A DNA stretch of 64,000 bases. It comes from a virus. Below the pieces are notes generated by a model. It made no database searches and was not told where the DNA came from. It saw only the letters and a program-made list of their open reading frames with translations. Both the position numbers and the translations under genes were made by a program. Positions 2,695 through 17,436 of this stretch are shown piece after piece (the stretch's first letter is position 1; every line of letters begins with the position of its first letter). The stretch lies in the IMG/VR virus record IMGVR_UViG_3300046744_000381, positions 1 through 64,000 of that record, one strand, 5' to 3'.

Positions 2695-5376
2695 ATGCCA
2701 TATGTAGATGCATTTTTTGATAGAGACGCTGATATTATTCGTGCAGTAGAACGCAAAGACGGAAAGCGACTTTATAATGAATATCAAGCCAAATACACTT
2801 GGTACTATGAAGATCCACGTGGCAAATACAAAAGCATCTTCGGTGATCCGTTACAACGTGTAGTATGTAAAAACACAAAAGACTTTCGAAAAGAACTTGC
2901 TATTAATAAAGGCAAGAATATGTTTGAATCGGATGTAAATCCTATATTTCAATGTTTAAGTGAAAATTACTTGAACCAAGATGCACCAAAGTTGAATGTG
3001 GCGTTTTGGGATATTGAAACTGACTTTGATCCAGAACGTGGATTTGCTCCAGTTGAAGATCCATTTATGCCTATTACTGCTATTACAGTACATTTGCAAT
3101 GGTTAGATATGTTAATTACAGTTGCTATGCCTCCCAAAGGGTTGCCAATTGAAGAAGCAAGGGCAATGTGTAAAGAACGCTGGGGCGATACTTGTATATT
3201 ATATCCGAATAGCAAACAAGGTGAAGGAGATATGCTGGAAGCATTTCTTGACCTAATTGAGGATGCTGATATTCATAGTGGTTGGAACAGCGAAGGCTAT
3301 GACGTTCCATACACTGTTAATAGAATACAACGTGTATTAAGCAAAGATGATACCAGACGTTTCTGTTTATGGGGGCAGTTGCCTAAGCGTAGAGAATATG
3401 AAAAGTTTGGCAAGACAAGTGAAACGTATGATACTATCGGAAGAGTACATATGGACTATCTTAACTTGTATCGCAAGTACACATATGAAGAACGTCACAC
3501 ATATAGACTAGACGCTATTGGTGAAATGGAAGTAGGCGAGAACAAGACTGTGTATGAAGGCACACTTGATCAGCTTTACAACAACGACTTTGAAAAGTTT
3601 ATTGAATACAACAGACAAGACGTTGCACTGCTAGACAAACTTGATAAGAAACTACGTTTTATTGATCTTGCAAATGAAATTGCGCACGACAACACAGTGC
3701 TATTACAAACAACAGCAGGTGCAGTTGCAGTTACAGAGCAAGCTATTGTTAACGAAGCACACAGGCGTGGTATGCAGGTGCCTAACAGAATGAATCACGA
3801 AGGCAACACAGCAGCAGCAGGCGCTTATGTTGCATTTCCAAAAAAAGGCGTACACGAGTGGATTGGTTCAATGGACTTAAACAGTCTGTATCCAAGTATT
3901 ATTCGTGCATTGAATATGGCGCCGGAAACTATTGTAGGACAGATTCGTCCAGTATTAACAGATGAGTTTTTGCACAATGCAACTACACTAGAAAAGAAAA
4001 GTTTTGCAGGTGCTTGGGAAGGCAAGTTTGCTACGCTAGAATATGATGCTGTAATGGAACAACGCAAAGATGTATCGTTGCACTTGGACTTGGAAGATGG
4101 CACCAGTCACGTACTAAGTGGTGCAGAGATTTGGAAACTAATTTTTGACAGTAATCAACCTTGGATGCTTAGTGCTAATGGTACAATTTTTACTACAGAA
4201 GTTGAAGGTGTTGTTCCAGGGTTACTAAAACGTTGGTATGCTGAACGTAAAGAACTACAAGCAAAAATGCGCAAAGCCATTGATGCAAACAATAGCACAG
4301 AAATAGCGTTTTGGGATAAAAGACAACTTGTTAAAAAGATTAACTTGAACAGTTTGTATGGTGCTATTCTTAATCCAGGTTGTAGATTTTTTGATAAACG
4401 TATCGGACAGAGTACAACACTAACAGGTAGATGTATTGCAAAACATATGAGTGCAGAAGTGAATAAGATTATTACCGGTGAATATAATCACGTCGGTAAA
4501 GCTATTATATACGGCGATACAGATTCTGTTTATTTTAGTGCATATCCTGTATTAAAAGATGAAATTGCTACAGGTAGTATTCCGTGGGGCAAAGACAATG
4601 TTATTACGCTGTATGATCAATTATGCGAACAAGCAAACACAACTTTCCCAGACTTTATGCGTGAAGCCTTCCATTGTCCACGTCCACGCAGTGAAGTGAT
4701 TGCAGCAGCAAGAGAAGTTGTTGCAGACACAGGCTTGTTTATTACAAAGAAACGTTATGCAGTGCGTGTTTATGACTTAGAAGGCGATAGAAAAGACAAA
4801 GAAGGTAGTTTAGGTAAAGTTAAGGCAATGGGCTTGGACTTGAAACGCAGTGATACCCCTGTGTTTATGCAAGACTATTTGAAAACATTGCTTGATAGGG
4901 TATTAGGACTAGAAGATGAAAAAAATCTATTAGAAAGTATTAGTGAGTTTAGGCGTGAGTTTAAAGAACGTCCGGGTTTTGAAAAAGGTTCACCCAAACG
5001 TGCAAATAAGATTGGACACTATCAACGTCTTGAAGAAAAGCAAGGTAAAGCAAATATGCCTGGACACGTAAGAGCAAGTATCAATTGGAATACACTTAAA
5101 CGTATGAACGGCGACAAGTATTCACAAGAGATTGTAGATGGTATGAAAGTTATTGTTTGCAAACTAAAACAGAATCCACTGGGGTATACAAGTGTAGCAT
5201 ATCCAACAGACGAATTACGTATTCCAGAATGGTTCAAGGAACTGCCATTTGATGGCGATGCAATGGAAGAAGTTATTATTGACAACAAACTAGACAACTT
5301 GATTGGCGTGTTGAAATATGATTTAGAAAGCACAAAACAAAAAACAACATTTAATAATTTATTTGAATGGAATTAA
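2695..5376 (+). CDS. polB: family B DNA polymerase with 3'-5' exonuclease
   Basis: Exo motifs WDIETD, GWNSEGYD and YNRQDV. Pol motifs MDLNSLYPS, KINLNSLYG, YGDTDS and KKRY. Confidence 0.97.
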   Translation: MPYVDAFFDRDADIIRAVERKDGKRLYNEYQAKYTWYYEDPRGKYKSIFGDPLQRVVCKNTKDFRKELAINKGKNMFESDVNPIFQCLSENYLNQDAPKLNVAFWDIETDFDPERGFAPVEDPFMPITAITVHLQWLDMLITVAMPPKGLPIEEARAMCKERWGDTCILYPNSKQGEGDMLEAFLDLIEDADIHSGWNSEGYDVPYTVNRIQRVLSKDDTRRFCLWGQLPKRREYEKFGKTSETYDTIGRVHMDYLNLYRKYTYEERHTYRLDAIGEMEVGENKTVYEGTLDQLYNNDFEKFIEYNRQDVALLDKLDKKLRFIDLANEIAHDNTVLLQTTAGAVAVTEQAIVNEAHRRGMQVPNRMNHEGNTAAAGAYVAFPKKGVHEWIGSMDLNSLYPSIIRALNMAPETIVGQIRPVLTDEFLHNATTLEKKSFAGAWEGKFATLEYDAVMEQRKDVSLHLDLEDGTSHVLSGAEIWKLIFDSNQPWMLSANGTIFTTEVEGVVPGLLKRWYAERKELQAKMRKAIDANNSTEIAFWDKRQLVKKINLNSLYGAILNPGCRFFDKRIGQSTTLTGRCIAKHMSAEVNKIITGEYNHVGKAIIYGDTDSVYFSAYPVLKDEIATGSIPWGKDNVITLYDQLCEQANTTFPDFMREAFHCPRPRSEVIAAAREVVADTGLFITKKRYAVRVYDLEGDRKDKEGSLGKVKAMGLDLKRSDTPVFMQDYLKTLLDRVLGLEDEKNLLESISEFRREFKERPGFEKGSPKRANKIGHYQRLEEKQGKANMPGHVRASINWNTLKRMNGDKYSQEIVDGMKVIVCKLKQNPLGYTSVAYPTDELRIPEWFKELPFDGDAMEEVIIDNKLDNLIGVLKYDLESTKQKTTFNNLFEWN

Positions 5377-5756
5377 TACAAATGACTACAGAAGCTATCA
5401 ACAAACGACGATATAAGTCACGATTAAAAGCAGGTGATAATTTCCAAATTGCTGGCGACATTATTAAAGATGACAAAAGATATCGTGTAGTAGACAACAC
5501 TGAACTTACCAACTTAGTAGTAAGCACTACTAGGTTAAATGCAAAACAAAGTACAACAGGACATATGCACGCCGGCCAAGAAGAAGTATATATCTTTACA
5601 AAGGGTGAAGGCAAAATGTCACTTGATGGCGATGACATCAAAGTAAAAGCTGGCAGTACTGTATTAATACACGATAATGTATTTCATAGAGTACATAACA
5701 CAAGCGACACTGCATTAGAGTTTACGTGTGTATTTGACGGAAAGAGACACAAATGA
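5367..5756 (+). CDS. cupin domain protein (sugar isomerase-like)
   Basis: Cupin motifs GHMHAGQEEVYIFTKGEG and IHDNVFHRVHN. Confidence 0.8.
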   Translation: MELIQMTTEAINKRRYKSRLKAGDNFQIAGDIIKDDKRYRVVDNTELTNLVVSTTRLNAKQSTTGHMHAGQEEVYIFTKGEGKMSLDGDDIKVKAGSTVLIHDNVFHRVHNTSDTALEFTCVFDGKRHK

Positions 5757-6163
5757 AAGTAGGATTTACTTGTAGTACTTTTGATTTGTTACACGCAGGA
5801 CATATTGGTATGTTGCGTGAAGCAAAGGCAAATTGCGATTATCTTATTGTAGGACTGCAAAGTGATCCTACAATTGATAGACCTGATACAAAAAATAAGC
5901 CTGTACAAACAATGGTAGAACGTTATGCACAACTTAATGGACTTAAATTTGTAGATGAAATTGTTCCGTATCAAACAGAGGAAGACTTGATAGACATACT
6001 AGAACTGTTTCAAATAGATGTTAGATTCTTAGGCGAAGAATATAGAGAAAAAGAATTTACTGGTAGAGCTACTTGTGCCGCAAGAGGAATTGAAGTACAC
6101 TTTAATAGACGTGAACACCGTTTTAGCACAAGTGATTTAAGAAGAAGGGTATGTGACAGATGA
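5753..6163 (+). CDS. cytidylyltransferase family protein (TagD/RfaE-like)
   Basis: HxGH motif in TFDLLHAGH, plus LIVGLQSD and C-terminal FSTS. Confidence 0.88.
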   Translation: MKVGFTCSTFDLLHAGHIGMLREAKANCDYLIVGLQSDPTIDRPDTKNKPVQTMVERYAQLNGLKFVDEIVPYQTEEDLIDILELFQIDVRFLGEEYREKEFTGRATCAARGIEVHFNRREHRFSTSDLRRRVCDR

Positions 6164-6873
6164 ATAAATTTATATTCGATGTTGATGGCACACTTACACC
6201 AAGTAGACAAAAAATAGATCCAGAATTTAAAGAGTTTTTTAAATCATTTATGGCACACAACAAAGTTTGGCTAGTTACCGGAAGTGATTATGCAAAAACT
6301 GTAGAACAATTAGGAAAAGATATTACCGAGTCGGTAGTTACGTGTTACAATTGTAGTGGTAACGATGTATGGTTCAAGGGCAAACGTGTGAATAGTAAGA
6401 ATTTTTCAGCTCCTAAAGAATTATATAATCTTATGGAGGGATGGTTGCAGGCAAGTCCATTTCCTTTGCGTACTGGTAATCATATTGAAGAACGCACAGG
6501 AACTATTAATTTTAGTATAATAGGACGCAATTGTAATTTACAACAACGAAAACTATATATTAAACACGATTTAGCAAACAAAGAACGTGAAAGTATTTCA
6601 CTAGAAATTAATATGAAATTTCCAGATATTACTGCTACTGTTGGTGGGGAAACTGGAATAGACATTTACAATAAAGGCGCAGATAAAAGTCAAATACTTG
6701 ATGATTTTAACAACGATGATAAAATTTACTTCTTTGGTGATAAAGTATCTCCAGGAGGCAACGATTGGCCGCTTGCAGTAAAACTAGACAAAAATCGTTG
6801 TTTTAATGTAAAAGATTGGCGAGACACGTGGGAAAGATTAAGTTACTTTCAGGAGGCAAAGTTAGCAGGATGA
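6160..6873 (+). CDS. HAD-IIB phosphomannomutase-like enzyme
   Basis: FDVDGTLT, VTGSD, IEERTGTINFS, GGETGIDI and FFGDKVSPGGND match the eukaryote-type PMM signature. Confidence 0.88.
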   Translation: MNKFIFDVDGTLTPSRQKIDPEFKEFFKSFMAHNKVWLVTGSDYAKTVEQLGKDITESVVTCYNCSGNDVWFKGKRVNSKNFSAPKELYNLMEGWLQASPFPLRTGNHIEERTGTINFSIIGRNCNLQQRKLYIKHDLANKERESISLEINMKFPDITATVGGETGIDIYNKGADKSQILDDFNNDDKIYFFGDKVSPGGNDWPLAVKLDKNRCFNVKDWRDTWERLSYFQEAKLAG

Positions 6874-7631
6874 TTATAGCAGGGTATGGATTTGTAGGCA
6901 AAGCACACGAACTATTATTTACAGGTCATAGGCGAGAAATTTTAATATACGATCCTCCAAAAAATATGCACGCCGACTTAGAAAATACAAGTGCTGTTAT
7001 TATTTGTGTACCAACGCCGCCAGCAGATGATGGTACTTGCGATATGAGTGCAGTTTTTGATGTTGTATCTAAAATACCCGATTATACGCCAATAATGATT
7101 AAAAGCACAATAAGTTTAGACGGATGGCACAGTTTAAAGGAAAAATTTCCTAATCATAGATTATGTTTTAGTCCAGAGTTTTTACGGGCTGCAAACTTTA
7201 TGAACGATGTTAAACATCTCGACAGTGTTATTTTAAGTGGTGATACAGATTATTGGAGAGACCAATATAGTTACAATTGGTCTAAGATGCAGTTAGCTAT
7301 TGTTAAGCCAGAAGAAGCTATTGCAATAAAATATTTTCGTAATGCATTTTTAGCAACTAAAGTTAGTTTCTTTAACGAAATATACGATTTCTGTGAAGGA
7401 CATAATATAAACTTTAATCAAGTCCGAGCAGGAGTAGCATCAGATGATCGCATATCTGATAGTCATACCTATGTATATCCAGAAGATGGTATCAGAGGCT
7501 GGGGAGGCCATTGCTTTCCCAAAGACACAAGTGCGCTATTAAAAATGGCAGCAGAAAAAAATATTAATCTAAATACACTGTCAGCGGCAGTGTATTACAA
7601 CACAAAACTAAAACAATTACTTGACAACTAA
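6870..7631 (+). CDS. UDP-glucose/GDP-mannose dehydrogenase family, short form lacking the C-terminal domain
   Basis: GYGFVG, ICVPTP, IKST, FSPEFLR, KYFRNAFLATKVSFFNE and GWGGHCFPKD. Start moved to the ATG overlapping the upstream stop. Confidence 0.88.
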   Translation: MIIAGYGFVGKAHELLFTGHRREILIYDPPKNMHADLENTSAVIICVPTPPADDGTCDMSAVFDVVSKIPDYTPIMIKSTISLDGWHSLKEKFPNHRLCFSPEFLRAANFMNDVKHLDSVILSGDTDYWRDQYSYNWSKMQLAIVKPEEAIAIKYFRNAFLATKVSFFNEIYDFCEGHNINFNQVRAGVASDDRISDSHTYVYPEDGIRGWGGHCFPKDTSALLKMAAEKNINLNTLSAAVYYNTKLKQLLDN

Positions 7632-7649
7632 GGCAAAATTTAGTATAAT
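7621..7649 (+). promoter_or_regulatory. consensus sigma70 promoter
   Basis: TTGACA-17 nt-TATAAT upstream of AGGAG and the ATG at 7671. Confidence 0.85.
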
Positions 7650-7670
7650 ACAACGATACAGGAGAACACT

Positions 7671-8399
7671 ATGCAAGATATTCTACAAGACATTGTGAGT
7701 CATACACACAGATTAGGTTTTATTACTACATTGAAGGTTACAGCAGAAGACGATACTCAAATTGATAGTATGGCTGATGATCGTAGTGTAATTATGACTG
7801 CAACAACACATTCACCGGTTGGAGAATTTGTTGGTACATTTGGTATGCCAGATTTAGGCAAACTGGATTATCATTTAAAGAATCCAGAGTACAAAGATGA
7901 AGCAAAAATTGAAGTTGTGCAAGCCGAGCGCAACGGCGAAGTTATGCCAACACATATTCATTTTGAAAACAAAGCAGGCGATTTTGAAAATGATTATCGC
8001 TTTATGAACAAAGCAATCATTGAAGAAAAACTAAAAAGCGTTAAATTTAAAGTTAACACATATGACGTAGAGATTCAGCCTAATATGGCAGCAATTGAAC
8101 GTATGAAACTTATGTCTGGCGCACACAGCGAAGAAACAGTATTTCAAGTAAAAACAGAAGACGGTAATTTAAACTTTTACTTTGGAGACGAAGCTACACA
8201 CGCAGGTACATTTACTTTTGAATACGGCATTACAGGTTCATTAACACATACTTGGGCTTGGCCTGTGGCACAAACACTTGCTATTTTGAATTTAGATGGC
8301 GACAAAACAATGAGTATTACAGATCAAGGCGCTATGAAGATTAGCGTAGACAGCGGTATGGCAACATACGACTATATCCTTCCAGCACAACAAAAATAA
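7671..8399 (+). CDS. probable DNA polymerase sliding clamp (gp45/PCNA-like)
   Basis: 242 aa, acidic, beta-rich. Ends with a clamp-like YDYILPA. Replication context. Confidence 0.6.
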   Translation: MQDILQDIVSHTHRLGFITTLKVTAEDDTQIDSMADDRSVIMTATTHSPVGEFVGTFGMPDLGKLDYHLKNPEYKDEAKIEVVQAERNGEVMPTHIHFENKAGDFENDYRFMNKAIIEEKLKSVKFKVNTYDVEIQPNMAAIERMKLMSGAHSEETVFQVKTEDGNLNFYFGDEATHAGTFTFEYGITGSLTHTWAWPVAQTLAILNLDGDKTMSITDQGAMKISVDSGMATYDYILPAQQK

Positions 8400-9856
8400 T
8401 GAAAACAAATCTTACTGAAACACAAAATGATTATGCTGTATTTTTGCCTAGTATAAGTGGCTTTTATGCTACGTTTGTAGGCAAACAACGTTATGGCGAA
8501 TACGTTGATTACAATCGTGTTCCAGCTGGCTTAAATGGTGTAGAAGGTCTTAACTTTTTGAACTCTAAAGAAGGAGCGTTCCACTATAAATGGGCGCTCT
8601 ATTCTGCAGGACACGCAGACTTAGATGTAAATAAGCACGTTGAAAAAGAAGATATGTTGCGAAACCGAGATAGAGAAAATAGTTGGTTGTTAGGCGACTC
8701 TGGTGGTTTTCAAATTGCTAAAGGACTTTGGGAAGGCGACTGGACTAATCCAAATTGTCCAAAAGCTGCCAAAAAGCGTGAACTGGTTGTAAACTGGATG
8801 GAAGAGTATATGGACTACGGAATGATGTTGGATATTCCAACTTGGACATTCCAAGATCCTAAAGCAGCAAAAGCAGCAAACATTCACAGTTATCAAGATG
8901 CTGTAGATGCAACACACATTAATGCAAAATACTATATGGCTAATAGACGTGGCAACTTCAAAGTGCTAAACGTGTTGCAAGGCAGCAATCACGCTGATGC
9001 AGACAGTTGGTATGAAGAATTCAAAGACTATTGTGATCCTGCAAAATACCCAGAAACACACTTTGATGGATGGGCAATGGGTGGACAAAATATGTGCGAT
9101 GTTGATCTAATTTTGCGTAGACTTGTTCATCAAATACACGATGGATTATTAGAAGAAGGTGTACACGATGTAATGCACTTCTTGGGTACAAGTAAATTAG
9201 AATGGGCTGTGTTGCTAACAGATATTCAACGTGCAGTGCGTAAGTATCATAATAAAAACTTTATGATTACATATGACTGTGCAAGCCCTTTTTTAGCAAC
9301 TGCAAATGGACAAGTGTATCATACTATACGTATTGAAGATCGCGGTAAGTGGAGCTATATGATGGCGCCGGGTGCAGATGATAAAAAGTATGCCACAGAT
9401 AGTAGATTATTTAAAGATGTGGTAGAAACAGACGGAATACTAAAAGCGTTTGAAGATTCGCCTATTAGTAAACATTGCAAAGTAAGTGATATTTGTTATT
9501 ACAAACCAGGCGATGTAAATAAAATTGGAAAGGAAGGTAAAACTTCTTGGGACTCATTTAGTTATGCATTACAAATGGGCCACAATGTATGGACGCATAT
9601 AGAAAGTACACAACGAGCAAATGAACGTTATGATACAGGACAATATCCATATATGTTAATCGATGAGCGTTTTGAACGTATTGAATTTAAACAAGTTGTA
9701 GATGAAATTTTTAGTCTTAAAGATAGACAAAAAAGTTTAGATCTAATCACTAAATATTCAAAGTTCTGGATGCAAGTAATTGGTACAAGACTTAATGTTG
9801 GTAAGAAAACAGTAAATGCCAGCACTAAGTTTGGAGAACTATTTGAGGAGACTTAA
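8399..9856 (+). CDS. dpdA: tRNA-guanine transglycosylase-family protein, probable DNA 7-deazaguanine insertase (DpdA-like)
   Basis: TGT motifs LGDSGGFQ, MMLDIP, NVLQG, GWAMGG, HFLGT and TYDCASP. Linked to folE and queE. Confidence 0.75.
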   Translation: MKTNLTETQNDYAVFLPSISGFYATFVGKQRYGEYVDYNRVPAGLNGVEGLNFLNSKEGAFHYKWALYSAGHADLDVNKHVEKEDMLRNRDRENSWLLGDSGGFQIAKGLWEGDWTNPNCPKAAKKRELVVNWMEEYMDYGMMLDIPTWTFQDPKAAKAANIHSYQDAVDATHINAKYYMANRRGNFKVLNVLQGSNHADADSWYEEFKDYCDPAKYPETHFDGWAMGGQNMCDVDLILRRLVHQIHDGLLEEGVHDVMHFLGTSKLEWAVLLTDIQRAVRKYHNKNFMITYDCASPFLATANGQVYHTIRIEDRGKWSYMMAPGADDKKYATDSRLFKDVVETDGILKAFEDSPISKHCKVSDICYYKPGDVNKIGKEGKTSWDSFSYALQMGHNVWTHIESTQRANERYDTGQYPYMLIDERFERIEFKQVVDEIFSLKDRQKSLDLITKYSKFWMQVIGTRLNVGKKTVNASTKFGELFEET

Positions 9857-10066
9857 ATGTCAGATGTTGGAAAATTAAAAGCGCACTTAGACGAATTAAG
9901 AAAAAAACATAAAGAACTTGACATAGAAATACAAAAACTGTATACTCATCATATTACAGAAGAATTAAGAAGATTGAAAACTGAAAAACTTTGGTTAAAA
10001 GATGAGATTTATAGAATTGAAAAACAATTGGTAGAACAAGGTGTATATGTAAATGGATATCACTGA
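9857..10066 (+). CDS. small coiled-coil protein (DUF465-like)
   Basis: KKHKELDIEI...LKTEKLWLKDEI pattern. Confidence 0.65.
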   Translation: MSDVGKLKAHLDELRKKHKELDIEIQKLYTHHITEELRRLKTEKLWLKDEIYRIEKQLVEQGVYVNGYH

Positions 10067-10226
10067 AAAAGAACTGCGTATAACTACTTTAGAAATGGCG
10101 GTAGAAGATTTGGATAAAATTATTGCTAATATGAAAGAAAAAAATTATCCAGATGCAGAAATCAACGAATATGTAAAAAAACGTTGGAACACTTGGAATG
10201 AAATATATCAGGTAAAAAAACAATGA
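10053..10226 (+). CDS. 57 aa hypothetical protein (not in ORF track)
   Basis: MDITEKELRITTLEMAVEDLDK... fills the gap and overlaps both neighbours. Confidence 0.6.
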   Translation: MDITEKELRITTLEMAVEDLDKIIANMKEKNYPDAEINEYVKKRWNTWNEIYQVKKQ

Positions 10227-10747
10227 AAAGAGTATACGATCAAGGTGTAAAAGAAGATGTAACTATGTTTATAGGTACAGAAGTAGAACACACTCCGCAG
10301 TTTGGAAAGAAAACACTTTTTGTAGTAGGTGTAAAAAATATAGACGAAATTATGAGTACAGCAGATAAGTTTGGTTGTAAACATATATACTGTGGTGCTA
10401 ATATGAGTTTTGATGTCACAAGCAATACATTAAGCCAGTGGAAACCTTGGGAAGATATGATACTTCCTTTGTTAAGTCAAGGATATTGGGTTACATTAGA
10501 TATTGATGTTAAACAAGTCGAAGGATTACTTGAAAGCGGTTTTACTGAATACAATAGATTTATTCCAATGATTAGTGTAAAATTACCATACATTAGTCAA
10601 TTAGGATACAATGCTTGTCTAAAATTAGATGACAGAGATTTTGATAGCACTAATCCAGGTGTATGGGTGCATAGGATGCACGATCTAAAAGAGAAAGCCG
10701 TTTTTACTGATTGGTCTAAATACACTACAGACGAAATCATAGGTTGA
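10223..10747 (+). CDS. hypothetical protein of the 7-deazaguanine cluster
   Basis: 174 aa with FIGTEVEHTP and KLDDRDF...NPGVW. Lies between the dpdA-like and T-fold genes. Confidence 0.75.
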   Translation: MKRVYDQGVKEDVTMFIGTEVEHTPQFGKKTLFVVGVKNIDEIMSTADKFGCKHIYCGANMSFDVTSNTLSQWKPWEDMILPLLSQGYWVTLDIDVKQVEGLLESGFTEYNRFIPMISVKLPYISQLGYNACLKLDDRDFDSTNPGVWVHRMHDLKEKAVFTDWSKYTTDEIIG

Positions 10748-10772
10748 CATTATGGAACAAGAACGTTATTAT
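10744..10772 (+). promoter_or_regulatory. sigma70-type promoter; may give a leaderless start at 10779
   Basis: TTGACA-17-TATTAT, 6 nt before an in-frame ATG. Confidence 0.55.
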
Positions 10773-11210
10773 GAATATATGAAACGTCGAATGAGAGAAG
10801 AGGACGCTAAATTGAGTATTACAAATAGATTAGAAAATGCAAAAAGAAGTATTTGGGTAACCTTTACTAAAGAAGGTATTCACAAGTATCCAGCAGCACT
10901 TGACGATCCTGCGCTGGCAACAGGTGACGAATATGATGTAAGTTTCTTAGGATACCCACATCGTCATACATTTCATTTTAAAGTACAAATTCAAGTAACA
11001 CACAACGATAGAGACATTGAATTTATTCAATTCAAGCGTTGGTTAGAATCATTGTATGTAGGTGATATCCTACAACTAGACTACAAGAGCTGTGAGATGA
11101 TCGCAGATGACTTGTATCAAAAGATTAACGACAAATATCCCGGCCGGTTTGTTGTTATTGATGTCGCCGAAGATGGCGAAAACGGCTGTCAAATTGTATA
11201 CCCAGGATAA
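10752..11210 (+). CDS. dpdL: T-fold QueD paralogue, DpdL-like (putative CDG decarboxylase)
   Basis: LGYPHRHTF fits LxxxHRHxF and lacks the QueD Cys-x-HGH motif. DRDIEFI, SCEMIA and VAEDGENG are T-fold features. Confidence 0.65.
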   Translation: MEQERYYEYMKRRMREEDAKLSITNRLENAKRSIWVTFTKEGIHKYPAALDDPALATGDEYDVSFLGYPHRHTFHFKVQIQVTHNDRDIEFIQFKRWLESLYVGDILQLDYKSCEMIADDLYQKINDKYPGRFVVIDVAEDGENGCQIVYPG

Positions 11211-11223
11211 GGAATAAGGTACA

Positions 11224-11412
11224 ATGACTATCAAGAATCCGGTAGTAACTAAAATTTTTAACGACTTAGACGAGCTGCACGATTTTTGTCGTACAGAAGG
11301 CTATCCATTTAATGAAGCAGATTTATACAAAAAAGATGCTCGTGTATGGGGAGCTTTTACAAAGTATAAAAATTGGATCCGAGCTAAGAATCGGAATAAA
11401 GGACGTAATTAA
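11224..11412 (+). CDS. hypothetical protein
   Basis: 62 aa, RBS present, TAATG coupling to the next gene. Confidence 0.7.
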   Translation: MTIKNPVVTKIFNDLDELHDFCRTEGYPFNEADLYKKDARVWGAFTKYKNWIRAKNRNKGRN

Positions 11413-12575
11413 TGCGTAAACTGTTTTATATGGGCTTAGAGCCTTATGAAGGCAGGTACACACTACAGCTAGAAGAATGGAGTAGGCGTACTTTCCAGCG
11501 TCGAAACATTGACTGGGTAAGTGTACCTGGTACAACTATTGATAATACAAAAGCAATACAAGTAGGCCAGGTGTTAGATGCACACGGCCGTTCCTACTTT
11601 GCTATGTCGCAAATGATGAACTTGGTGCAAATGATGCGTAACGGCGAAGTGACAGGTGAAGATGTTATTTTCTTTGAAGATATGTTTCAGCCTGGTATGG
11701 AGTCGTTGCCTTACATTATGGATCAGATTCCAGCAGAACAACAGCCACAAGTTTGGATACGTTGTTTGGCACAGGCAGTAGACCCAGATGACTTTGTACA
11801 CGTTTGGGGTATGGGTAAATGGATGAGTTTGTATGAAGAAATGTGCAACGAGTTTGTTACTGGTGTATTAGCAAGTAATGAAGAAATGGTTGCACATATG
11901 AAAATAGCAAACTGGAAAGCACCTATTTACAACATTAGCGGACTTGCATTTGATAAAACAGAAGTGCAACTTAGAGTAGGCGAAATTAAGCCTTGGGATG
12001 AACGTGAGAATCGTGTTGTTTTTGCAGCACGTTTTGATCAAGAAAAACAGCCAGACTTTTTTATGGATATTGCTGAACAACTTAATGACGAAAACATTGA
12101 GTTTGCTATTCTACAAGGTGGTCCATTAAGAAGTAATAATCAAAAATATATTGATAGAGCAAGAGCTCTTGAAAAAGCAGGTTGCTTAAAAATTTATGAA
12201 AACTTAAAAAAGAATGATTACTATCATATTGTAAATCATAGTAAAGTTTTGTTTAATTGTGCATTGCAAGATTGGACAAGTAATACAGTAAGTGAAGCAG
12301 ATGCATTAGGTTGTAATGTATTGTTTCCTGCATATAGAAGTTTTCCTGAGATATTTGCAAACGATCATACAAGAATGTATGTGCCTTGGAGTGTTACAGA
12401 TGCAGTTAACAAACTACAGCCATTGCTAGATTCTCCGCACAAAGACTTAGGTGCAATCAGTAATTGGACTAGTGCAACTATTGATCGTTACATTGATATT
12501 ATGCAAGGCAACGGTGAAAAGTGGCGTAGAGACAGCAATCGTTATAGAGATCACGTAGCGGAGACAAAGTATTGA
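11412..12575 (+). CDS. GT-B glycosyltransferase
   Basis: VVFAARFDQEKQP and NCALQDWTSNTVSEADALGCNVLFP correspond to the GT-B nucleotide-sugar-binding domain. Confidence 0.8.
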   Translation: MRKLFYMGLEPYEGRYTLQLEEWSRRTFQRRNIDWVSVPGTTIDNTKAIQVGQVLDAHGRSYFAMSQMMNLVQMMRNGEVTGEDVIFFEDMFQPGMESLPYIMDQIPAEQQPQVWIRCLAQAVDPDDFVHVWGMGKWMSLYEEMCNEFVTGVLASNEEMVAHMKIANWKAPIYNISGLAFDKTEVQLRVGEIKPWDERENRVVFAARFDQEKQPDFFMDIAEQLNDENIEFAILQGGPLRSNNQKYIDRARALEKAGCLKIYENLKKNDYYHIVNHSKVLFNCALQDWTSNTVSEADALGCNVLFPAYRSFPEIFANDHTRMYVPWSVTDAVNKLQPLLDSPHKDLGAISNWTSATIDRYIDIMQGNGEKWRRDSNRYRDHVAETKY

Positions 12576-13447
12576 AAGTTTTAGTTACAGGTGCAACAGG
12601 ATACATAGGAAGTCACGTTTGTAAACTACTTAAACAACGTGGACACTTTGTAGTGGGCTGGGATATTAATATTCACGGCGAACACAATGATGTATCCGCA
12701 TACTGTAACGAATTTTCTAATGTTGATGTTACTGGGCAATATGTAGGCGGCATTTATGATGCTGTTGTGCATTTAGCAGGACGTAGTGTAGTACCAGATA
12801 GTATGAAGGAGCCAAGCGAATACTATAGAGTAAATGTAATGGGTACACTTAATCTTTTAAATAAAATAACTTGTCCACACATATTATTCGCTAGTACAAG
12901 TAGTGCTTGGGAAATGGAATCACCTTATGCAAGGAGTAAAGTGGCAGCAGAAGATGTAATCAAGGAGAAAGCAGATGGATACACTATCTTTAGATTTTTT
13001 AACGTATCTGGTACTGACGGCGTTCATCGTCAACTGGGTACTCCTACCCATCTTATTCGTGTCGCTGCTATGGTGGCTGCTGGCAAGATTCCAGACATTA
13101 AGATCTTTGGTACGGACTATGCTACTAGGGATGGCACTTGCATTCGCGATTATATTCATATTGTTGATTTGGCTTGTGCCATTGTCAACGGAATCGAACG
13201 TGGTCCCGCAAATACGCCATATGAATGTCTTGGTAGTAACGTAGGATATAGTGTACGTGAGGTAATCAGCACTATGGAACAAGTTACTAATAAAAAGTTA
13301 AATATAATCGAAGCTGATCGTAGAGTTGGTGATGCAGTTTCTAGTGTAGTTGATAATTTAAGTGATTTGGTTATATTAGAAAAAAATATAGAAGATATGT
13401 GTTTAGATCAATATAAATTAGAAAGGAGCAAAAATGCATTCGAGTGA
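12572..13447 (+). CDS. galE: UDP-glucose 4-epimerase
   Basis: TGATGYIGSH, YARSK, RFFNVSG and DGTCIRDYIHIVDLA. Confidence 0.92.
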   Translation: MKVLVTGATGYIGSHVCKLLKQRGHFVVGWDINIHGEHNDVSAYCNEFSNVDVTGQYVGGIYDAVVHLAGRSVVPDSMKEPSEYYRVNVMGTLNLLNKITCPHILFASTSSAWEMESPYARSKVAAEDVIKEKADGYTIFRFFNVSGTDGVHRQLGTPTHLIRVAAMVAAGKIPDIKIFGTDYATRDGTCIRDYIHIVDLACAIVNGIERGPANTPYECLGSNVGYSVREVISTMEQVTNKKLNIIEADRRVGDAVSSVVDNLSDLVILEKNIEDMCLDQYKLERSKNAFE

Positions 13448-13709
13448 ATTAGAAGGAACTGATAATTTATATTATTGGGTATTACGTGCTATTGAATTTT
13501 TAGATGATGGAGAATTTTTAGAAGGAATTATGTGGTTTGAAGAACAAGCAAAACATATTTTAGATAATATTCAAGAATGGCCAGAAAATCCTCAATTACT
13601 ACAAGATTGTAAAGATGCTCGTGAAATGATTCAAAACGAAGATTGGCCCGGTGTATTAGAAGCAATTGAAAATCTTAGAATGCATATGGAAAATATGGAG
13701 TACTTATAA
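13434..13709 (+). CDS. acidic hypothetical protein
   Basis: AAGGAG RBS, coupled to neighbours. Confidence 0.7.
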   Translation: MHSSELEGTDNLYYWVLRAIEFLDDGEFLEGIMWFEEQAKHILDNIQEWPENPQLLQDCKDAREMIQNEDWPGVLEAIENLRMHMENMEYL

Positions 13710-14065
13710 TGCGTGATCACGCAGAAAATACAATAACAATTACTTTGGATGATTGTGACGAATCCGGAATGTCAGTAACTAATGTTACTACTAGTCCACT
13801 TACAGGCAATGATTATACATTTTCCTTAACCGATAGTATTAGTACCATTGATACAAGTGGAATTGAAGATTTAATTGATATGGATTCTGGAATTACAATT
13901 GATATTAATACTCCTGTAATTTTTGAAGATTATATGCCCGAAGTATCAAAAGTAGAAGATATGTGTAATGAGTATCCTGCACTACAAAAAGTATATGAAA
14001 ACTTTAAAAGCATATATCATATGGTACATCAGGATTATGTTGGCAATAAAAAAAATGCAACATAG
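13709..14065 (+). CDS. hypothetical protein
   Basis: Low-complexity T/S/D N-terminus. C-terminal MCNEYPALQKVYENFKSIY. Confidence 0.7.
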   Translation: MRDHAENTITITLDDCDESGMSVTNVTTSPLTGNDYTFSLTDSISTIDTSGIEDLIDMDSGITIDINTPVIFEDYMPEVSKVEDMCNEYPALQKVYENFKSIYHMVHQDYVGNKKNAT

Positions 14066-14276
14066 CTTAGAACAATGGATAGAACGCATTAATACAATGA
14101 AAGATTTGTGTATCCAAGCACATAGAGTACGCAACGAATTTGCTGAAATTAGTTATAAAGAATATGACAAAGAAACTTGTAAACATTTATTAGAACAAGT
14201 TCAGTCTATGGCAAGAGGCATTGCAAATGAACAAATTACTGAAATAAAAACAGAGATGGACGAATGGAAAAAATAA
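14055..14276 (+). CDS. hypothetical protein
   Basis: MQHSLEQWIERIN...; start trimmed from ORF 13968. Confidence 0.65.
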   Translation: MQHSLEQWIERINTMKDLCIQAHRVRNEFAEISYKEYDKETCKHLLEQVQSMARGIANEQITEIKTEMDEWKK

Positions 14277-14788
14277 GCAGAAAGTATTACTCTTGGGAAG
14301 ATGTACAAAAATGTGCTCATAAACTTGCATTAATGATGTACAAAAGCGGGTTTCGTCCTGACTATATTGTAGGGCTAAACAGAGGTGGACTGCCACTGAG
14401 TGTTATGTTAAGTCATTTACTCGATTGTAACCATTATGCTCTTGATGTAAGATTACGTGACAATGCTACACAAGAATCTAATTGCTGGATGGCTGAAGAT
14501 GCATTCGGTTATCTTGATGGTAAATGCAAACCTAAAATGCGAAAGCAAATACTAATAGTAGATGACATCAACGACACAGGCGCTACATTTGAATGGATTA
14601 AGAAAGATTGGCAAGCAGGTTGTTTACCAAATAGTGAAGGGTGGGACGAAGTTTGGGACGAAAATGTACGTTTTGCTACAATGTGTGAAAAGACACACAC
14701 CAAGTTTGATGGTGTAAATTATGTTTGGGAAGAAATAGATACCAGCGAAAAAGACACTTGGATAGTTTTTCCTTGGGAATATGATTAA
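14264..14788 (+). CDS. type I phosphoribosyltransferase (xanthine/guanine PRT-like)
   Basis: IVGLNRGGL, the PRPP-binding ILIVDDINDTGAT, and WIVFPWE. Confidence 0.9.
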   Translation: MEKISRKYYSWEDVQKCAHKLALMMYKSGFRPDYIVGLNRGGLPLSVMLSHLLDCNHYALDVRLRDNATQESNCWMAEDAFGYLDGKCKPKMRKQILIVDDINDTGATFEWIKKDWQAGCLPNSEGWDEVWDENVRFATMCEKTHTKFDGVNYVWEEIDTSEKDTWIVFPWEYD

Positions 14789-14797
14789 GGAGACAAT

Positions 14798-14929
14798 ATG
14801 AGTTGCGGTTGTGGAAGATCGCCAACAGGTAGATGTATCGGTTGGCATAGTTTGACAGAAGACGAATATCGTGTTAAACTAGACGAGTATAACAAAAGAC
14901 AGGCATTAAAGGAGAAAAAAGATGCGTGA
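14798..14929 (+). CDS. 43 aa Cys/His microprotein, CDGSH-like (not in ORF track)
   Basis: AAGGAG RBS then MSCGCGRSPTGRCIGWHSLTEDEYRVKL... Confidence 0.7.
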   Translation: MSCGCGRSPTGRCIGWHSLTEDEYRVKLDEYNKRQALKEKKDA

Positions 14930-15122
14930 ACAACTAGTAAAGGCTGCAAGAATGCACGCCGAAGGTGAGCTTGAAAGAGCAAAAACAAACATCTTGGTGT
15001 ATATGCATCAAGCAGTAGGTATTGGTGAACATAGCGATATTGTTGAAGCTATTCAAGAAGAACTTGATAAAATGGCTGCGGCAACAGACCGTATCGAAAT
15101 GTTAAATGAACATTTTAGTTGA
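14922..15122 (+). CDS. small hypothetical phage protein
   Basis: AAGGAG RBS and an AVGIGEHSDIVE motif. Confidence 0.75.
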   Translation: MREQLVKAARMHAEGELERAKTNILVYMHQAVGIGEHSDIVEAIQEELDKMAAATDRIEMLNEHFS

Positions 15123-15147
15123 CAAAAGATCTAAATAGTGTTACTAT
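15119..15147 (+). promoter_or_regulatory. sigma70 promoter of folE
   Basis: TTGACA-17-TACTAT with an extended TG. Confidence 0.75.
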
Positions 15148-15185
15148 AAACAATAGACATCCTCGTCTATAACTCGGAGAATTAA

Positions 15186-15893
15186 ATGACAGAAGAAGTA
15201 AAAGTAAGTCAAGTTGTACGTGAAAGACTTAAAAAAAATAACGTGCGTTTCTATGCAAATGATAATATCAGCGAACACGTAAGCGAGTGGGAACTTGAAG
15301 AGATCAAGAACGAACTTGCTTATAAGTTTGAAGATGTTTTAAAAACACTTATTATTGATACTGAAAACGATCCTAACAGTATTGATACTGGTAGACGTAT
15401 GGCAAAAATGTATGTCAATGAGATTATGTCTGGTAGATATAATCCAATGCCAGCGCCTAATGCTTTTCCTAATTATGTAAATGAAGGTGAAGGTTATGAA
15501 GGTATGTTGGTTGTGCGAAGTGAACTTACAAGTTTATGTTCGCATCATCACCAAACAGTAAAAGGTGTAGCATACATTGGTATTATTGCTGGTCCTAAGT
15601 TGCTAGGTTTGAGTAAATACACACGTATTGCTCAATGGTGTGCTATGCGTGGAACACTACAAGAAGAACTAAATGTTATGATTGCTGATGAAATTCAGAA
15701 ACATACAGGCAGTGAAAATGTTGGTGTTTATGTACAAGCCACACACGGTTGTTGTGAAAATAGAGGCATCAAAGCACATAGTAGTTTAACACAAACTACA
15801 GTGTTACGTGGTGCATTTAAAAATGATCCAGCAACTAAAAAAGAGTTTATCGATAATGTGAAACTCCAACAGCAATTTGCACAGGGGTCATAA
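15186..15893 (+). CDS. folE: GTP cyclohydrolase I
   Basis: SLCSHH, GLSKYTR, LQEEL, ATHGCCENRG and TTVLRGAF. Confidence 0.95.
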   Translation: MTEEVKVSQVVRERLKKNNVRFYANDNISEHVSEWELEEIKNELAYKFEDVLKTLIIDTENDPNSIDTGRRMAKMYVNEIMSGRYNPMPAPNAFPNYVNEGEGYEGMLVVRSELTSLCSHHHQTVKGVAYIGIIAGPKLLGLSKYTRIAQWCAMRGTLQEELNVMIADEIQKHTGSENVGVYVQATHGCCENRGIKAHSSLTQTTVLRGAFKNDPATKKEFIDNVKLQQQFAQGS

Positions 15894-16057
15894 TGACAGA
15901 ACCAGTAGATGTAAGTAAAAAGCACTTTTACATTAGTTTAATAAAAAGTGCTGTACGTATCGCAGGATGCGGTGTGTGTTTATATACAGGCAGTGTAGTT
16001 TGGTTAGCAAGTGGTTTTCTTGTTGCTGAACTGCTCGGCATTGCGGAGGAACTATAA
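15893..16057 (+). CDS. 54 aa membrane protein (not in ORF track)
   Basis: MTEPVDVSKKHFYISLIKSAVRIAG...AELLGIAEEL, with TAATG coupling at both ends. Confidence 0.7.
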   Translation: MTEPVDVSKKHFYISLIKSAVRIAGCGVCLYTGSVVWLASGFLVAELLGIAEEL

Positions 16058-16950
16058 TGAAGTTACGCTATAGCGAAGCATTTTATAGTGTACAAGGAGA
16101 AGGTAAGTTCGTAGGAGTACCAAGTGTATTCCTACGTACCTTCGGTTGTAACTTCCGTTGTATGAATTTTGGTTTAAAGAATGAGCCTATGCGTGATATA
16201 AAACAAAAAGCAGGCATTATCCACAATGCCGAAGTGCAAGGATTGCTTGATGCTGGCGTACACGAGACTACCAAAGAGTTTAATGACTTACCTATTATAC
16301 ACACAGGTTGTGATACATACGCAAGTATCTATCCAGAGTTTAAACACTTTAATAGACAAGCAACTGTAGACGAAGTCGTAGAACATTTGCTTTCACTTAC
16401 TCCCAACGGTAAGTGGGTACAGGATAATGGTCAAGATGTACACTTGATTATGACAGGCGGTGAACCGTTGTTAGCGTGGCAACGGCTTTACGTAGAGCTG
16501 TTTGAACATCCACGTATGCAGGATTTAAGGAACATCACATTTGAAACAAACACTACACAACATTTACACGACGATCTCTACAACTATCTCAACGACAGCG
16601 ACAGACTTACAGTCACTTGGAGTTGTTCCCCAAAACTTAGTGTCTCAGGAGAACCTTGGGAAACTGCTATTAAGCCTGATGTTGCTCGTGAGTATACTAG
16701 GGTTGACGGTAGCGAACTTTATCTTAAGTTTGTTGTGGCTACTGAAGACGATTTTATGGAAGTCAAAAGAGCTGTTAGTGCTTACCAAGATGCCGGGCTA
16801 CAATGTCCAGTATATCTTATGCCAATGGGCGGGCGCAGTGAAGAATACTCCCTCAACGTTAAAGACGTGGCTGAAGCGTGTATGGCAGAAGGATGGCGAT
16901 TTACCCCCAGACTCCATATTAGCTTATTCGGAAATGCCTGGGGAACTTAG
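16057..16950 (+). CDS. queE: 7-carboxy-7-deazaguanine synthase (radical SAM) with an expanded Cys motif
   Basis: EAFYSVQGEG, VFLRTFGCNFRC...GCDT, TGGEP, ETN, CSPKL and RLH. Confidence 0.9.
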   Translation: MKLRYSEAFYSVQGEGKFVGVPSVFLRTFGCNFRCMNFGLKNEPMRDIKQKAGIIHNAEVQGLLDAGVHETTKEFNDLPIIHTGCDTYASIYPEFKHFNRQATVDEVVEHLLSLTPNGKWVQDNGQDVHLIMTGGEPLLAWQRLYVELFEHPRMQDLRNITFETNTTQHLHDDLYNYLNDSDRLTVTWSCSPKLSVSGEPWETAIKPDVAREYTRVDGSELYLKFVVATEDDFMEVKRAVSAYQDAGLQCPVYLMPMGGRSEEYSLNVKDVAEACMAEGWRFTPRLHISLFGNAWGT

Positions 16951-17029
16951 GAAGTATAAAAACGCACAGCACGAAAAGGCTATGAAAGCGCCTATCGATC
17001 AAGATGCACTTAGAAAGGCAGGTTTATAA
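16934..17029 (+). CDS. possible 31 aa peptide
   Basis: MPGELRKYKNAQHEKAMKAPIDQDALRKAGL fills the gap after queE. Its stop overlaps the next ATG. Confidence 0.4.
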   Translation: MPGELRKYKNAQHEKAMKAPIDQDALRKAGL

Positions 17030-17436
17030 TGAAGAAATTGCTTAAAAAAATTACAGGTATTACTGCTAAAGAACAAGCCCTTGCGGCAGAGGAAGCACGT
17101 ATCAAAGAAGAAGAAATGAAACTTCTTAAAAAGAAGGACCCTAAAGCATACTATACAAAGAAAAAAGAGGCTTGGGTAAATGTTCTTGATATGAAAATTA
17201 ACAAAGATAATATTCGAAACGGGTTCTTTGAGCTCGATTGGAATGAATACTTTATTAAAGAACTAATGCAAAATGGATATGGTTTTGAAAATGATCCAGA
17301 AGAAGAAATTGTAGATCGCTGGTTTAAAGAAATTGTATATAATATGTTAGCAGAAGAAGGCATTGATTCAACTGATAGAGGTGCAGGTTATATTAATGTT
17401 GTGCCTATTGACAAAGGTACCAGTGAAGTTAGTTAA
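17029..17436 (+). CDS. hypothetical phage protein
   Basis: NGFFELDWNEYFI...EEIVDRWF. Confidence 0.75.
   Translation: MKKLLKKITGITAKEQALAAEEARIKEEEMKLLKKKDPKAYYTKKKEAWVNVLDMKINKDNIRNGFFELDWNEYFIKELMQNGYGFENDPEEEIVDRWFKEIVYNMLAEEGIDSTDRGAGYINVVPIDKGTSEVS

Follow-up and report, generated by a model that had tools for sequence, protein, structure and literature searches.

The first 64 kb of the IMG/VR virus record IMGVR_UViG_3300046744_000381 (hereafter, the window; the whole contig comprises 136,876 bases) carries, embedded in replication genes, a gene block that we propose to be a QueC-less, DpdL-type 7-deazaguanine module combined with a dedicated glycosylation step, an assignment for which we judge the odds to be even. 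It is in our view highly probable that the glycosyltransferase (GT) of the block is linked to the deazaguanine genes by a strong functional tie. The best single reading is then that the virion DNA of this phage contains a glycosylated 7-deazaguanine (probability about 0.5), and, with a chance that we put just short of even, that such phages carry the first glycosylated purine in DNA, the sugar residing on 7-deaza-2'-deoxyguanosine (dDG). To our knowledge, the sugar-bearing bases of DNA known so far are all pyrimidines. The genes that carry this reading are the following (CDG, 7-carboxy-7-deazaguanine; SDR, short-chain dehydrogenase/reductase; NDP, nucleoside diphosphate).

8399..9856, + strand: DpdA-like guanine transglycosylase with TGT fold, 485 residues (AlphaFold 2 model, Foldseek, motifs)
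10752..11210, + strand: DpdL, a T-fold paralogue of QueD and predicted CDG decarboxylase yielding 7-deazaguanine (signature, homology)
11412..12575, + strand: GT4-like GT-B glycosyltransferase (Pfam Glycos_transf_1, E 1.6e-8, 34.7 bits versus a cut-off of 26.4, residues 193-343)
12572..13447, + strand: GalE-like NDP-sugar 4-epimerase of the SDR type (Pfam Epimerase, E 6.6e-34; overlaps the end of the GT gene by 4 bases)
15186..15893, + strand: FolE, GTP cyclohydrolase I (Pfam GTP_cyclohydroI, E 2.3e-36)
16057..16950, + strand: QueE-like radical SAM CDG synthase (phrog_2076, QueE-like, E 1e-50)

Beyond the window, the contig carries a T4-like set of structural genes (gp20 portal, gp23 capsid, gp25 and prohead protease), so that its source is an uncultured T4-like jumbo phage of roughly 350 kb, for which CheckV indicates 38% completeness; a megablast comparison of the block with 50,697 phage records revealed no close cultured relative. 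The + strand from 2695 to 18940 forms a single tightly packed block in the order: family B DNA polymerase (polB), cupin, sugar-1-phosphate nucleotidyltransferase, phosphomannomutase, NDP-sugar dehydrogenase-like protein, presumed clamp, TGT-like enzyme, two small open reading frames (ORFs), a 174-residue protein, the T-fold protein, a 62-residue ORF, GT, GalE-like SDR, small ORFs, a purine phosphoribosyltransferase (PRTase), FolE, QueE, an EndoIII-like fragment and a 5'-3' exonuclease. A preliminary description, made from the letters alone, had named nine co-oriented genes ranging from the clamp to queE, and all nine are indeed present and tightly packed on the + strand: family matches bear out its PRTase, FolE and QueE (the last also with partial NCBIfam QueE matches at E 6e-11 and weaker, below cut-offs), a Pfam match above cut-off and a GT-B model its glycosyltransferase, a Pfam Epimerase match the GalE placed behind it (TIGR01179 galE, E 2.2e-58, below cut-off), and a TGT fold with invariant motifs its TGT/DpdA-like enzyme. 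The limits of the block, however, had been drawn too narrowly, as it extends upstream to 5367 with four more sugar-nucleotide genes.

Linkage of the glycosyltransferase to the deazaguanine genes

Whether the GT, dpdA and the T-fold gene stay together in different phages was a check set beforehand, and its outcome is strongly positive. Full-length matches to the GT are found in 18 of the 50,697 phage records (Phosso, 11 PA5oct-like phages, ACP17 twice, BUCT-ZZ01, X1, BUDD and BCSR5), each of which is DpdL-positive, and in every lineage no more than a few genes separate the GT from either DpdL or the DpdA-like gene. Vibrio phage 2.275.O possesses the DpdA type of the window together with QueF and QueC, and has no GT. 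Because all 18 GTs reside in DpdL phages and 2.275.O has this DpdA without a GT, the GT tracks DpdL and not the DpdA type; it is also absent from the preQ0-type cluster that was examined. The same linkage is evident in IMG/VR, where many of the loci belong to related phages: (i) the best 80 loci with a window-type GT encode DpdA in 74 cases, DpdL in 74, the SDR in 74, the 174-residue protein in 71, FolE in 63, the PRTase in 50 and QueE in 37, with misses falling at contig ends; (ii) of the 80 best DpdA loci, 49 extend for at least 3.5 kb downstream, and every one of these contains the GT; and (iii) in a sample of 80 loci with a second, Phosso-type GT, the 50 with at least 3 kb on both sides encode DpdL in 50 cases, the DpdA-like enzyme in 47 and FolE or QueE in 48. 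That the sugar step is tied to the deazaguanine pathway is thus well supported. Five partial matches (PhiXhv-12, PhiXhv-15, PhiXhv-16, Ep026 and Ep032; residues 83-340) were dropped, their N-terminal part being unmatched; PhiXhv-12, the only one of the five whose surroundings were read, has its match in a GlmS/deacetylase neighbourhood, and partial hits outside deazaguanine clusters are matches to the GTs of other phages.

Two types of GT occupy the same slot. Between Phosso-type phages and the window, median identities are 67% for polB, 69% for DpdL and 69% for the exonuclease, while the GTs are only about 23% identical (for one pair, 66% for polB and 22% for the GT); in the first sample, with window-type GTs, polB is 56-64% identical and the GT still 70-73%. 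The adjoining sugar gene changes with the GT: an SDR starts at most 900 nucleotides 3' of the GT in 67 of 72 window-type loci and in none of 65 Phosso-type loci, 10 of which have a dehydrogenase-like gene downstream instead. Such co-variation is to be expected if the GT truly transfers a sugar from a specific donor and is subject to diversifying selection. Scanning with the Phosso type as seed yielded at least 584 further relatives of the GT.

The AlphaFold 2 model of the GT (pLDDT 75, pTM 0.77) consists of two Rossmann-like domains in the GT-B arrangement, and is closest to retaining GT4-type enzymes (BshA, GlgM, PglA, PimA and WaaG). Foldseek matches BshA, GlgM, PglA and WaaG with E-values from 3e-9 to 2e-7, and VIA yields Z-scores of 19.9-19.1 for GT4/GT5 enzymes with 305-328 residues aligned, followed by a pterin glucosyltransferase (Z 18.6) and the T4 alpha-glucosyltransferase (1y6f; Z 18.3, root-mean-square deviation 4.4 Å, 313 residues), the latter within about 1.6 of the top scores and not to be told apart from other GT-B enzymes. 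As the pterin enzyme and the T4 enzyme score so similarly, the fold alone does not separate DNA from a small acceptor. T4 beta-glucosyltransferase is not among the matches listed by either program, which is no evidence of unlikeness, and the best match of the GT profile among PDB sequences is an unrelated oxidoreductase (E 0.01). Residues R207, E211, K212 and E295 are invariant in the window clade, BUCT-ZZ01, Phosso, PA5oct, X1 and ACP17; by analogy, we take them to correspond to the GT4 donor-binding motifs of the C-terminal domain, and the GT looks catalytically intact. An N-terminal signature, E-P-x-E-x-R-Y-T, is common to six lineages, and within the window clade the mean column identity of the GT (74%) exceeds that of DpdA (51%). 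The family is abundant and essentially confined to phages: 7,996 of 8,000 scored candidates, all unnamed, reach E 0.001 and represent at least 7,996 clusters at 90% identity, whereas 185,579 species genomes yielded 3 matches, all on contigs of metagenome-assembled genomes.

Among cultured phages, PA5oct (Wroclawvirus) offers an instructive comparison. Its genes EST35_0314-0322 comprise, as in the window, polB, clamp, a DpdA-like enzyme (35% identity), a family GT and DpdL (59.5%), continuing with an SDR fragment, PRTase, QueE and exonuclease. Unlike in the window, the GT is of the Phosso type (20% identical), the DpdA-like enzyme does not have the polymerase-like tail described below, and the stretch read holds no cupin, phosphomannomutase or nucleotidyltransferase gene. 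In support of the main reading, PA5oct DNA is described as resisting five G-containing restriction enzymes (PMC12191111), and the parts of that END-nuclease preprint available to us name QueE and a QueD-like gene in this phage, with mention of neither a GT nor a nucleoside mass.

The deazaguanine pathway and its transglycosylase

The T-fold gene was first described by its LxxxHRHxF motif, which is present, and with the implication that it represents QueD, which does not hold. According to the main text of PMC10516641, LxxxHRHxF is the DpdL signature, whereas QueD has CxxxHGH. In the window protein Leu replaces the Cys of the latter motif and no PTPS match is obtained, so that QueD was rejected; L66-x3-H70-x-H72-x-F74 is shared without exception by the 15 DpdL sequences aligned, that of phiST among them. 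Translated searches (tblastn) give identities of 34% to phiST (CGPG_00067; E 6e-10), 54% to ACP17, 59.5% to PA5oct and 71% to Phosso; in all, the window DpdL matches phiST and 27 other records, that is, 28 DpdL-positive records out of 50,697. The set of FolE, QueD and QueE envisaged for the block is likewise incomplete here, as a PTPS search with E up to 1 detected no QueD on the 136,876-base contig. Each of five larger relatives encodes one QueD, located within the module in both loci where it was placed, and QueC is absent from all five, one of which is a complete 328-kb genome bounded by terminal repeats. As a side observation, DpdL forms the C-terminal part of a longer ORF in two GT-less phages, Bakedbeans (L178:8221-9372, 383 residues) and MA9V-3 (L182:8431-9312, 293 residues), both of which are thus fusions with an additional N-terminal part.

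Given the identity of DpdL, which in the window is accompanied by FolE, QueE and DpdA, and given that the relatives have no QueC, the pathway should end in CDG and then, via the predicted DpdL step, in 7-deazaguanine. FolE, QueD (supplied in relatives from inside the module) and QueE would convert GTP into CDG, and DpdL would strip off its carboxyl group; in the main text of PMC10516641 this decarboxylation is a prediction. The same text reports 7-deazaguanine (dDG) at full replacement and unglycosylated in the DNA of phiST, and states that ACP17 dpdL plus dpdA expressed in E. coli gave no dDG, with the suggestion that further enzymes may be required. The phiST system resembles that of the window in having FolE, QueE, the DpdL signature, a divergent TGT-fold enzyme and no QueC, all beside polymerase genes. 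It differs in that (i) the whole record contains no GT, (ii) its DpdA3 comprises just 259 residues and is accompanied by a MazG-like gene, (iii) the stretch read contains neither a PRTase nor sugar-nucleotide genes, and (iv) plain dDG is present in its DNA.

The assignment of the DpdA-like protein to the TGT/DpdA superfamily is based on fold and motifs only, since no match was obtained in Pfam (including TGT, PF01702), NCBIfam or the PDB (phmmer and profile searches). All 50 Foldseek PDB matches listed for its model (pLDDT 88, pTM 0.88) are to Z. mobilis TGT (E 1e-7 to 6e-7, TM-scores 0.36-0.56). Residues D100, S101, G102, G103, Q105, D145 and D293 (the last within Y-D-C-A-S-P) are invariant in 16 of 16 sequences, as are the motifs D-S-G-G-x-Q, L-D-I-P and Y-D-C, which also align with ACP17 DpdA; presumably, the D-S-G-G-F-Q-like and F-D-C-like motifs are equivalent to those that harbour the catalytic aspartates of TGT. 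With hhalign, ACP17 DpdA is matched at 86.7% (E 4e-6) and phiST DpdA3 (CGPG_00065) at a probability of just 17% (E 0.0015, 89 columns), and the protein was thus not filed in the DpdA3 subfamily (phiST/Campylobacter type). Its closest cultured homologues are in the PA5oct-like Pseudomonas jumbo phages (35% identity), Vibrio phage 2.275.O and Sinorhizobium phage Phosso. DpdA is long in phages that also carry the GT, at 416-540 residues, as opposed to the 259 residues of GT-less phiST.

The C-terminus of the DpdA-like enzyme bears on where it works, in connection with two upstream genes:

2695..5376, + strand: family B DNA polymerase, polB (Pfam DNA_pol_B, E 3.8e-34)
7671..8399, + strand: probable gp45/PCNA-like sliding clamp (directly after polB in the layout; protein-atlas features)

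The second ORF is likely a sliding clamp, as the preliminary description had it. Position and atlas features favour this, in that the ORF follows polB in the window, PA5oct, Phosso (annotated there as sliding clamp) and Vibrio phage 2.275.O, and protein-atlas features point, as a lead only, to PCNA-like clusters (0.98) and a gp45 'Sliding clamp' cluster (0.94); Pfam, NCBIfam and PDB sequence searches gave no match. The disordered C-terminus of the DpdA-like enzyme, STKFGELFEET, resembles that of polB, TTFNNLFEWN, and F-x-x-[LIM]-F occurs within the last 12 residues of just 3 of 138 contig ORFs. The motif is kept in 8 of 16 DpdA-like relatives, with the remaining 8 having acidic tails. In five lineages the DpdA tail copies that of the phage's own polB: besides the window, these are ACP17 (SLDDLFE / TLDELFE), X1 (SLESLFG / SLEELFG), Vibrio 2.275.O (NNTDLFDW / NNNDLFGW) and BUCT-ZZ01 (TLDDFFS / SLDSFFD); the DpdA proteins of PA5oct and BCSR5 have no such tail. 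By analogy with T4-type polymerases, we infer that the tail is a clamp-docking peptide. If so, this mimicry is a good, albeit indirect, indication that the substrate of the enzyme is DNA at the replisome and not tRNA, and the enzyme, docked on the clamp, would exchange guanine for 7-deazaguanine in newly made DNA, an exchange to which its linkage with FolE, QueE and DpdL also points indirectly. BUCT-ZZ01 encodes a second GT (447 residues) that also ends in a polymerase-like tail (SLEDFFND), which would place at least that GT on DNA. A separate observation concerns Vibrio phage 2.275.O (L008, 11908-18934), where the long DpdA type with polymerase-like tail adjoins QueF and a YhhQ-like transporter, in a cluster that further contains a 'queuosine biosynthesis protein', glutamine-amidotransferase-like and amidoligase-like genes and no GT; this cluster is a preQ1-type variant of the polymerase-adjacent layout.

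The proposed sugar, its acceptor and competing explanations

Five further genes of the block could supply the sugar donor or handle the released base:

5367..5756, + strand: cupin, mannose-6-phosphate-isomerase-like (Pfam Cupin_2, E 3.7e-14; MannoseP_isomer, E 8e-5; 12 of 80 related loci)
5753..6163, + strand: sugar-1-phosphate nucleotidyltransferase, RfaE domain II/cytidylyltransferase-like (Pfam CTP_transf_like, E 3.3e-13; TIGR02199, E 5.9e-24, below cut-off; 39 of 80 related loci)
6160..6873, + strand: eukaryotic-type phosphomannomutase, HAD-IIB (Pfam PMM, E 1.5e-29; 20 of 80 related loci)
6816..7631, + strand: NDP-sugar dehydrogenase-like protein, 271 residues (UDPG_MGDP_dh, E 1.3e-24; UDPG_MGDP_dh_N, E 1e-9; TIGR03026, E 4.6e-42, below cut-off; 37 of 80 related loci)
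14264..14788, + strand: xanthine/guanine-type PRTase (Pfam Pribosyltran, E 5.7e-9; NF006613 xanthine PRT, E 4.9e-10, below family cut-off)

The four sugar genes at 5367-7631 belong with the deazaguanine/GT block. The dehydrogenase-like protein is matched in the N-terminal and central domains only, with no Pfam match for the C-terminal nucleotide-sugar-binding domain; a 271-residue homologue of it comes after the Phosso-type GT in one other locus (L192). The sugar genes differ among relatives, one of which has a dehydratase-like SDR and an aminotransferase fragment, and another a mannose-6-phosphate isomerase. The PRTase is found in 50 of 80 window-type-GT loci and 44 of 80 Phosso-type-GT loci, as well as in the PA5oct and BUCT-ZZ01 clusters. 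In the scheme that we favour, the GT4-like enzyme would put a hexose-type sugar on the deazaguanine, most likely on DNA, using an NDP-sugar provided or epimerised by the GalE-like enzyme along with the upstream isomerase, mutase, nucleotidyltransferase and dehydrogenase-like genes, and the PRTase may recycle the excised guanine to GMP and thereby feed the first step. Acceptor, attachment site and nature of the sugar, as well as the order of base exchange and sugar transfer, are what we infer for this scheme.

The site of attachment poses the main difficulty. With DpdL as the T-fold gene, plain 7-deazaguanine is the base to be expected, and this offers no hydroxyl, amine or carboxyl group at C7 and hence no obvious acceptor for a sugar, a point that the preliminary description did not address. 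The sugar would have to be joined as a C-glycoside to one of the pyrrole carbons, C7 or C8, or else be carried by N2 or O6. As the GT is paired exclusively with the decarboxylase DpdL, a C-glycoside may fit, with the sugar on the unmasked, electron-rich pyrrole carbon. We know of no precedent for a C-glycoside in DNA; in 7-deazapurine natural products decorated by GTs, we take the sugar to be at N2. In the complete 328-kb relative, the module (L090:14116-18582) also holds a Bmp/PnrA-like nucleoside-binding protein, a 2-oxoglutarate-Fe(II) oxygenase, a HIT protein, QueD and ClpP, and this oxygenase could make a hydroxyl acceptor in that lineage.

Several further observations weigh against a sugar on the deazaguanine of DNA. 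First, 10 of the 28 DpdL-positive records have no GT, phiST among them: whole-record profile searches found none in RHph_I1_18, Bakedbeans, Ahp1_CNU-2021, phiST, D479 and MA9V-3, and four other Cellulophaga records gave no tblastn match (only tblastn was applied to these). Secondly, we found no systematic difference in DpdL sequence between phages with and without the GT. Thirdly, counts from related IMG/VR phages are not independent, so that the seven lineages are the better measure of linkage. Fourthly, sugar-nucleotide genes are missing from some GT-bearing lineages, the ACP17 cluster holding none. Fifthly, the solved folds nearest to the GT include many small-molecule GT4 enzymes, and the family GT of the window has no polymerase-like tail. 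It is acidic (isoelectric point 5.1), like most proteins of the block; as this is the case in 10 of 10 lineage representatives (4.9-6.2), and polB and DpdA are equally acidic, the charge says nothing either way. A complex prediction for DpdA and GT (score 0.00, run without controls) likewise gives no answer either way. Finally, we found no nucleoside chemistry in the literature for any GT-bearing phage, and, with the genome 38% complete, a hydroxymethylase may be encoded elsewhere in this phage. As to the claim that no hydroxymethylase or TET gene is nearby, it holds for thymidylate-synthase homologues: neither the contig nor the complete 328-kb relative, whose genome encodes exactly one GT, gave a PF00303 match; two of the five larger relatives, both incomplete, do show a strong thymidylate-synthase match. 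The TET part is left where it was: a Pfam Tet_JBP search of the five relatives gave no match, but its positive control was unmatched too, and the search thus says nothing. The sugar-decorated deazaguanine itself, as originally proposed, is then favoured by the synteny of GT and pathway and by the co-variation of GT types, and disfavoured by the plain 7-deazaguanine expected and by the existence of GT-less DpdL systems.

Known systems provide partial parallels. In T-even phages, as in our proposal, a phage GT-B enzyme adds a sugar to a non-canonical base after replication, namely to 5-hydroxymethylcytosine, and alternative GT types occur among related T-even phages. Their acceptor, however, is a hydroxymethyl pyrimidine made via a thymidylate-synthase homologue, the gene not found on the window contig or in the complete relative, and the window GT has its own E-P-x-E-x-R-Y-T signature and no sequence similarity to the T4 GTs. 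In galactosyl- and mannosyl-queuosine of eukaryotic tRNA, a sugar is transferred to a 7-deazaguanine derivative already present in nucleic acid; there it sits on the cyclopentenediol hydroxyl, whereas the system of the window has no queuosine side chain and its target is presumably DNA. In huimycin and dapiramicin, a sugar is placed, for example by HuiG, on a 7-deazapurine derived from the FolE, QueD, QueE route (as described in bioRxiv 10.64898/2026.04.15.718813), though these are products of bacterial secondary-metabolite clusters that start from preQ0 and have no DpdA. For DNA, a full-text literature search that did not cover the supplements of PMC10516641 found no report of a glycosylated 7-deazaguanine. 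The main text of that paper lists eight deazaguanine derivatives in phage DNA, none with a sugar, and does not contain the word 'glycosyl'.

The alternative that survives best, though we consider it unlikely, is that the GT glycosylates a free 7-deazapurine base or nucleotide, which DpdA then inserts or which remains a soluble product like huimycin or dapiramicin. Small-molecule GT4 enzymes (BshA, MshA, LmbT and GlgM) are indeed among the best Foldseek matches, the pterin glucosyltransferase scores Z 18.6 against the GT model, and the polymerase-like tail of DpdA is not shared by the family GT; a PRTase, which could make the nucleotide form, is present in the clusters of the window, PA5oct and BUCT-ZZ01. 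On the other hand, the DNA-modifying T4 alpha-glucosyltransferase scores almost as high (Z 18.3), the second GT of BUCT-ZZ01 does have a polymerase-like tail, and the module is located among replication genes, invariably together with a DNA transglycosylase. Moreover, since recognition of the base by known TGT enzymes involves its 2-amino group, DpdA would be expected to use an N2-glycosylated base poorly. As a chemical precedent for this alternative, bioRxiv 10.64898/2026.04.15.718813 reports that HuiG uses UDP-GlcNAc to glycosylate the base of a 7-deazapurine.

Somewhat less probable still is that the final base is plain dDG and the GT an accessory required for its synthesis or insertion, for instance via a transient glycosyl intermediate, via CDG activation or as a structural partner of the larger DpdA forms. 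The ACP17 result would then be readily understood, in that dpdL and dpdA gave no dDG in E. coli (PMC10516641) and the GT sits between both genes in the ACP17 cluster, and the long DpdA forms of GT phages (416-540 residues versus 259 for phiST) would point the same way. Reconstitution, however, failed for GT-less phiST as well, according to the main text of the same paper. An accessory role also leaves unexplained why each of the two GT types is paired with a sugar-modifying gene of its own and why four extra sugar-nucleotide genes are present, and it sits poorly with the invariance of the putative donor-binding residues. Finally, it is improbable that GT and sugar genes act on some different acceptor (a modified pyrimidine made off the contig, a phage or host protein, or an envelope glycan) and owe their proximity to the deazaguanine genes to shared early/middle expression: the contig covers 38% of the genome, two of five larger relatives have a thymidylate-synthase family gene and the window contains a large sugar- or peptide-modifying island elsewhere, but the GT is found only in DpdL-positive phages, near DpdL or DpdA in seven lineages whose genomes otherwise differ, no thymidylate-synthase homologue accompanies the GT of the complete 328-kb relative, and the PhiXhv-12 match beside GlmS and a deacetylase, outside any deazaguanine cluster, is a partial one.

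Neighbouring genes and biological significance

Two small conserved genes accompany the module:

10223..10747, + strand: conserved 174-residue protein (module member in 71 of 80 window-type-GT loci and 65 of 80 Phosso-type-GT loci)
11224..11412, + strand: small conserved ORF, 62 residues (just 5' of the GT; tblastn match in 42 of 80 related loci)

The former has a homologue in ACP17 (E 9.6e-27) and no match in PDB profile, Pfam or PHROG searches; protein-atlas hints at PHP, amidohydrolase and radical-SAM-like barrels are sub-threshold, and no fold name was assigned. Pfam and PHROG family searches with the 62-residue ORF gave no match. Just 3' of QueE lies a 135-residue HhH-GPD/endonuclease III-like fragment (17566-17973, +; Pfam E 1.1e-6), present in just 3 of 80 related loci, which could function as a glycosylase or serve as a decoy for those enzymes of the host that recognise modified bases. 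Further along the contig, a subtilase with a plastocyanin/azurin-like copper-binding domain (27605-29539, +) is followed by a fatty-acid desaturase-like protein (29574-30191, +) and by an island of tailoring enzymes (window 30903-62831, mostly - strand). This island, which looks like a peptide- or sugar-modification factory, encodes 8 radical SAM proteins (several with N-terminal SPASM), 5 Asp/Asn beta-hydroxylase-like cupins, 2 nitroreductases, a SET-domain protein, a GNAT protein, an aminotransferase-like protein and a second, fuller NDP-sugar dehydrogenase (57793-58878). Giant ORFs are found among the structural genes at contig positions 78278-92056 (-, 4,592 residues, with a CBM_5_12 carbohydrate-binding match) and 121017-129509 (+, 2,830 residues).

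A glycosylated deazaguanine, if it proves true, would constitute a new chemical class of DNA modification, and would explain (i) the modified G of the therapy-candidate phage PA5oct and (ii) the failure to rebuild dDG from ACP17 dpdL and dpdA alone. It would also show what some of the broad-range modification-dependent nucleases and glycosylases must cope with. With at least 7,996 clusters at 90% identity, the GT genes are among the commonest in aquatic phage metagenomes, and six GT-bearing lineages are in culture, which makes the question directly testable. The polymerase-like tail of DpdA further suggests how complete replacement of a base could be coupled to replication. Finally, it is tempting to speculate that, if the deazaguanine indeed carries a sugar, the two interchangeable GT types would endow closely related phages with different glycoforms, like the variants found among T-even phages, and that such variation would be driven by the modification-dependent nucleases of their hosts.

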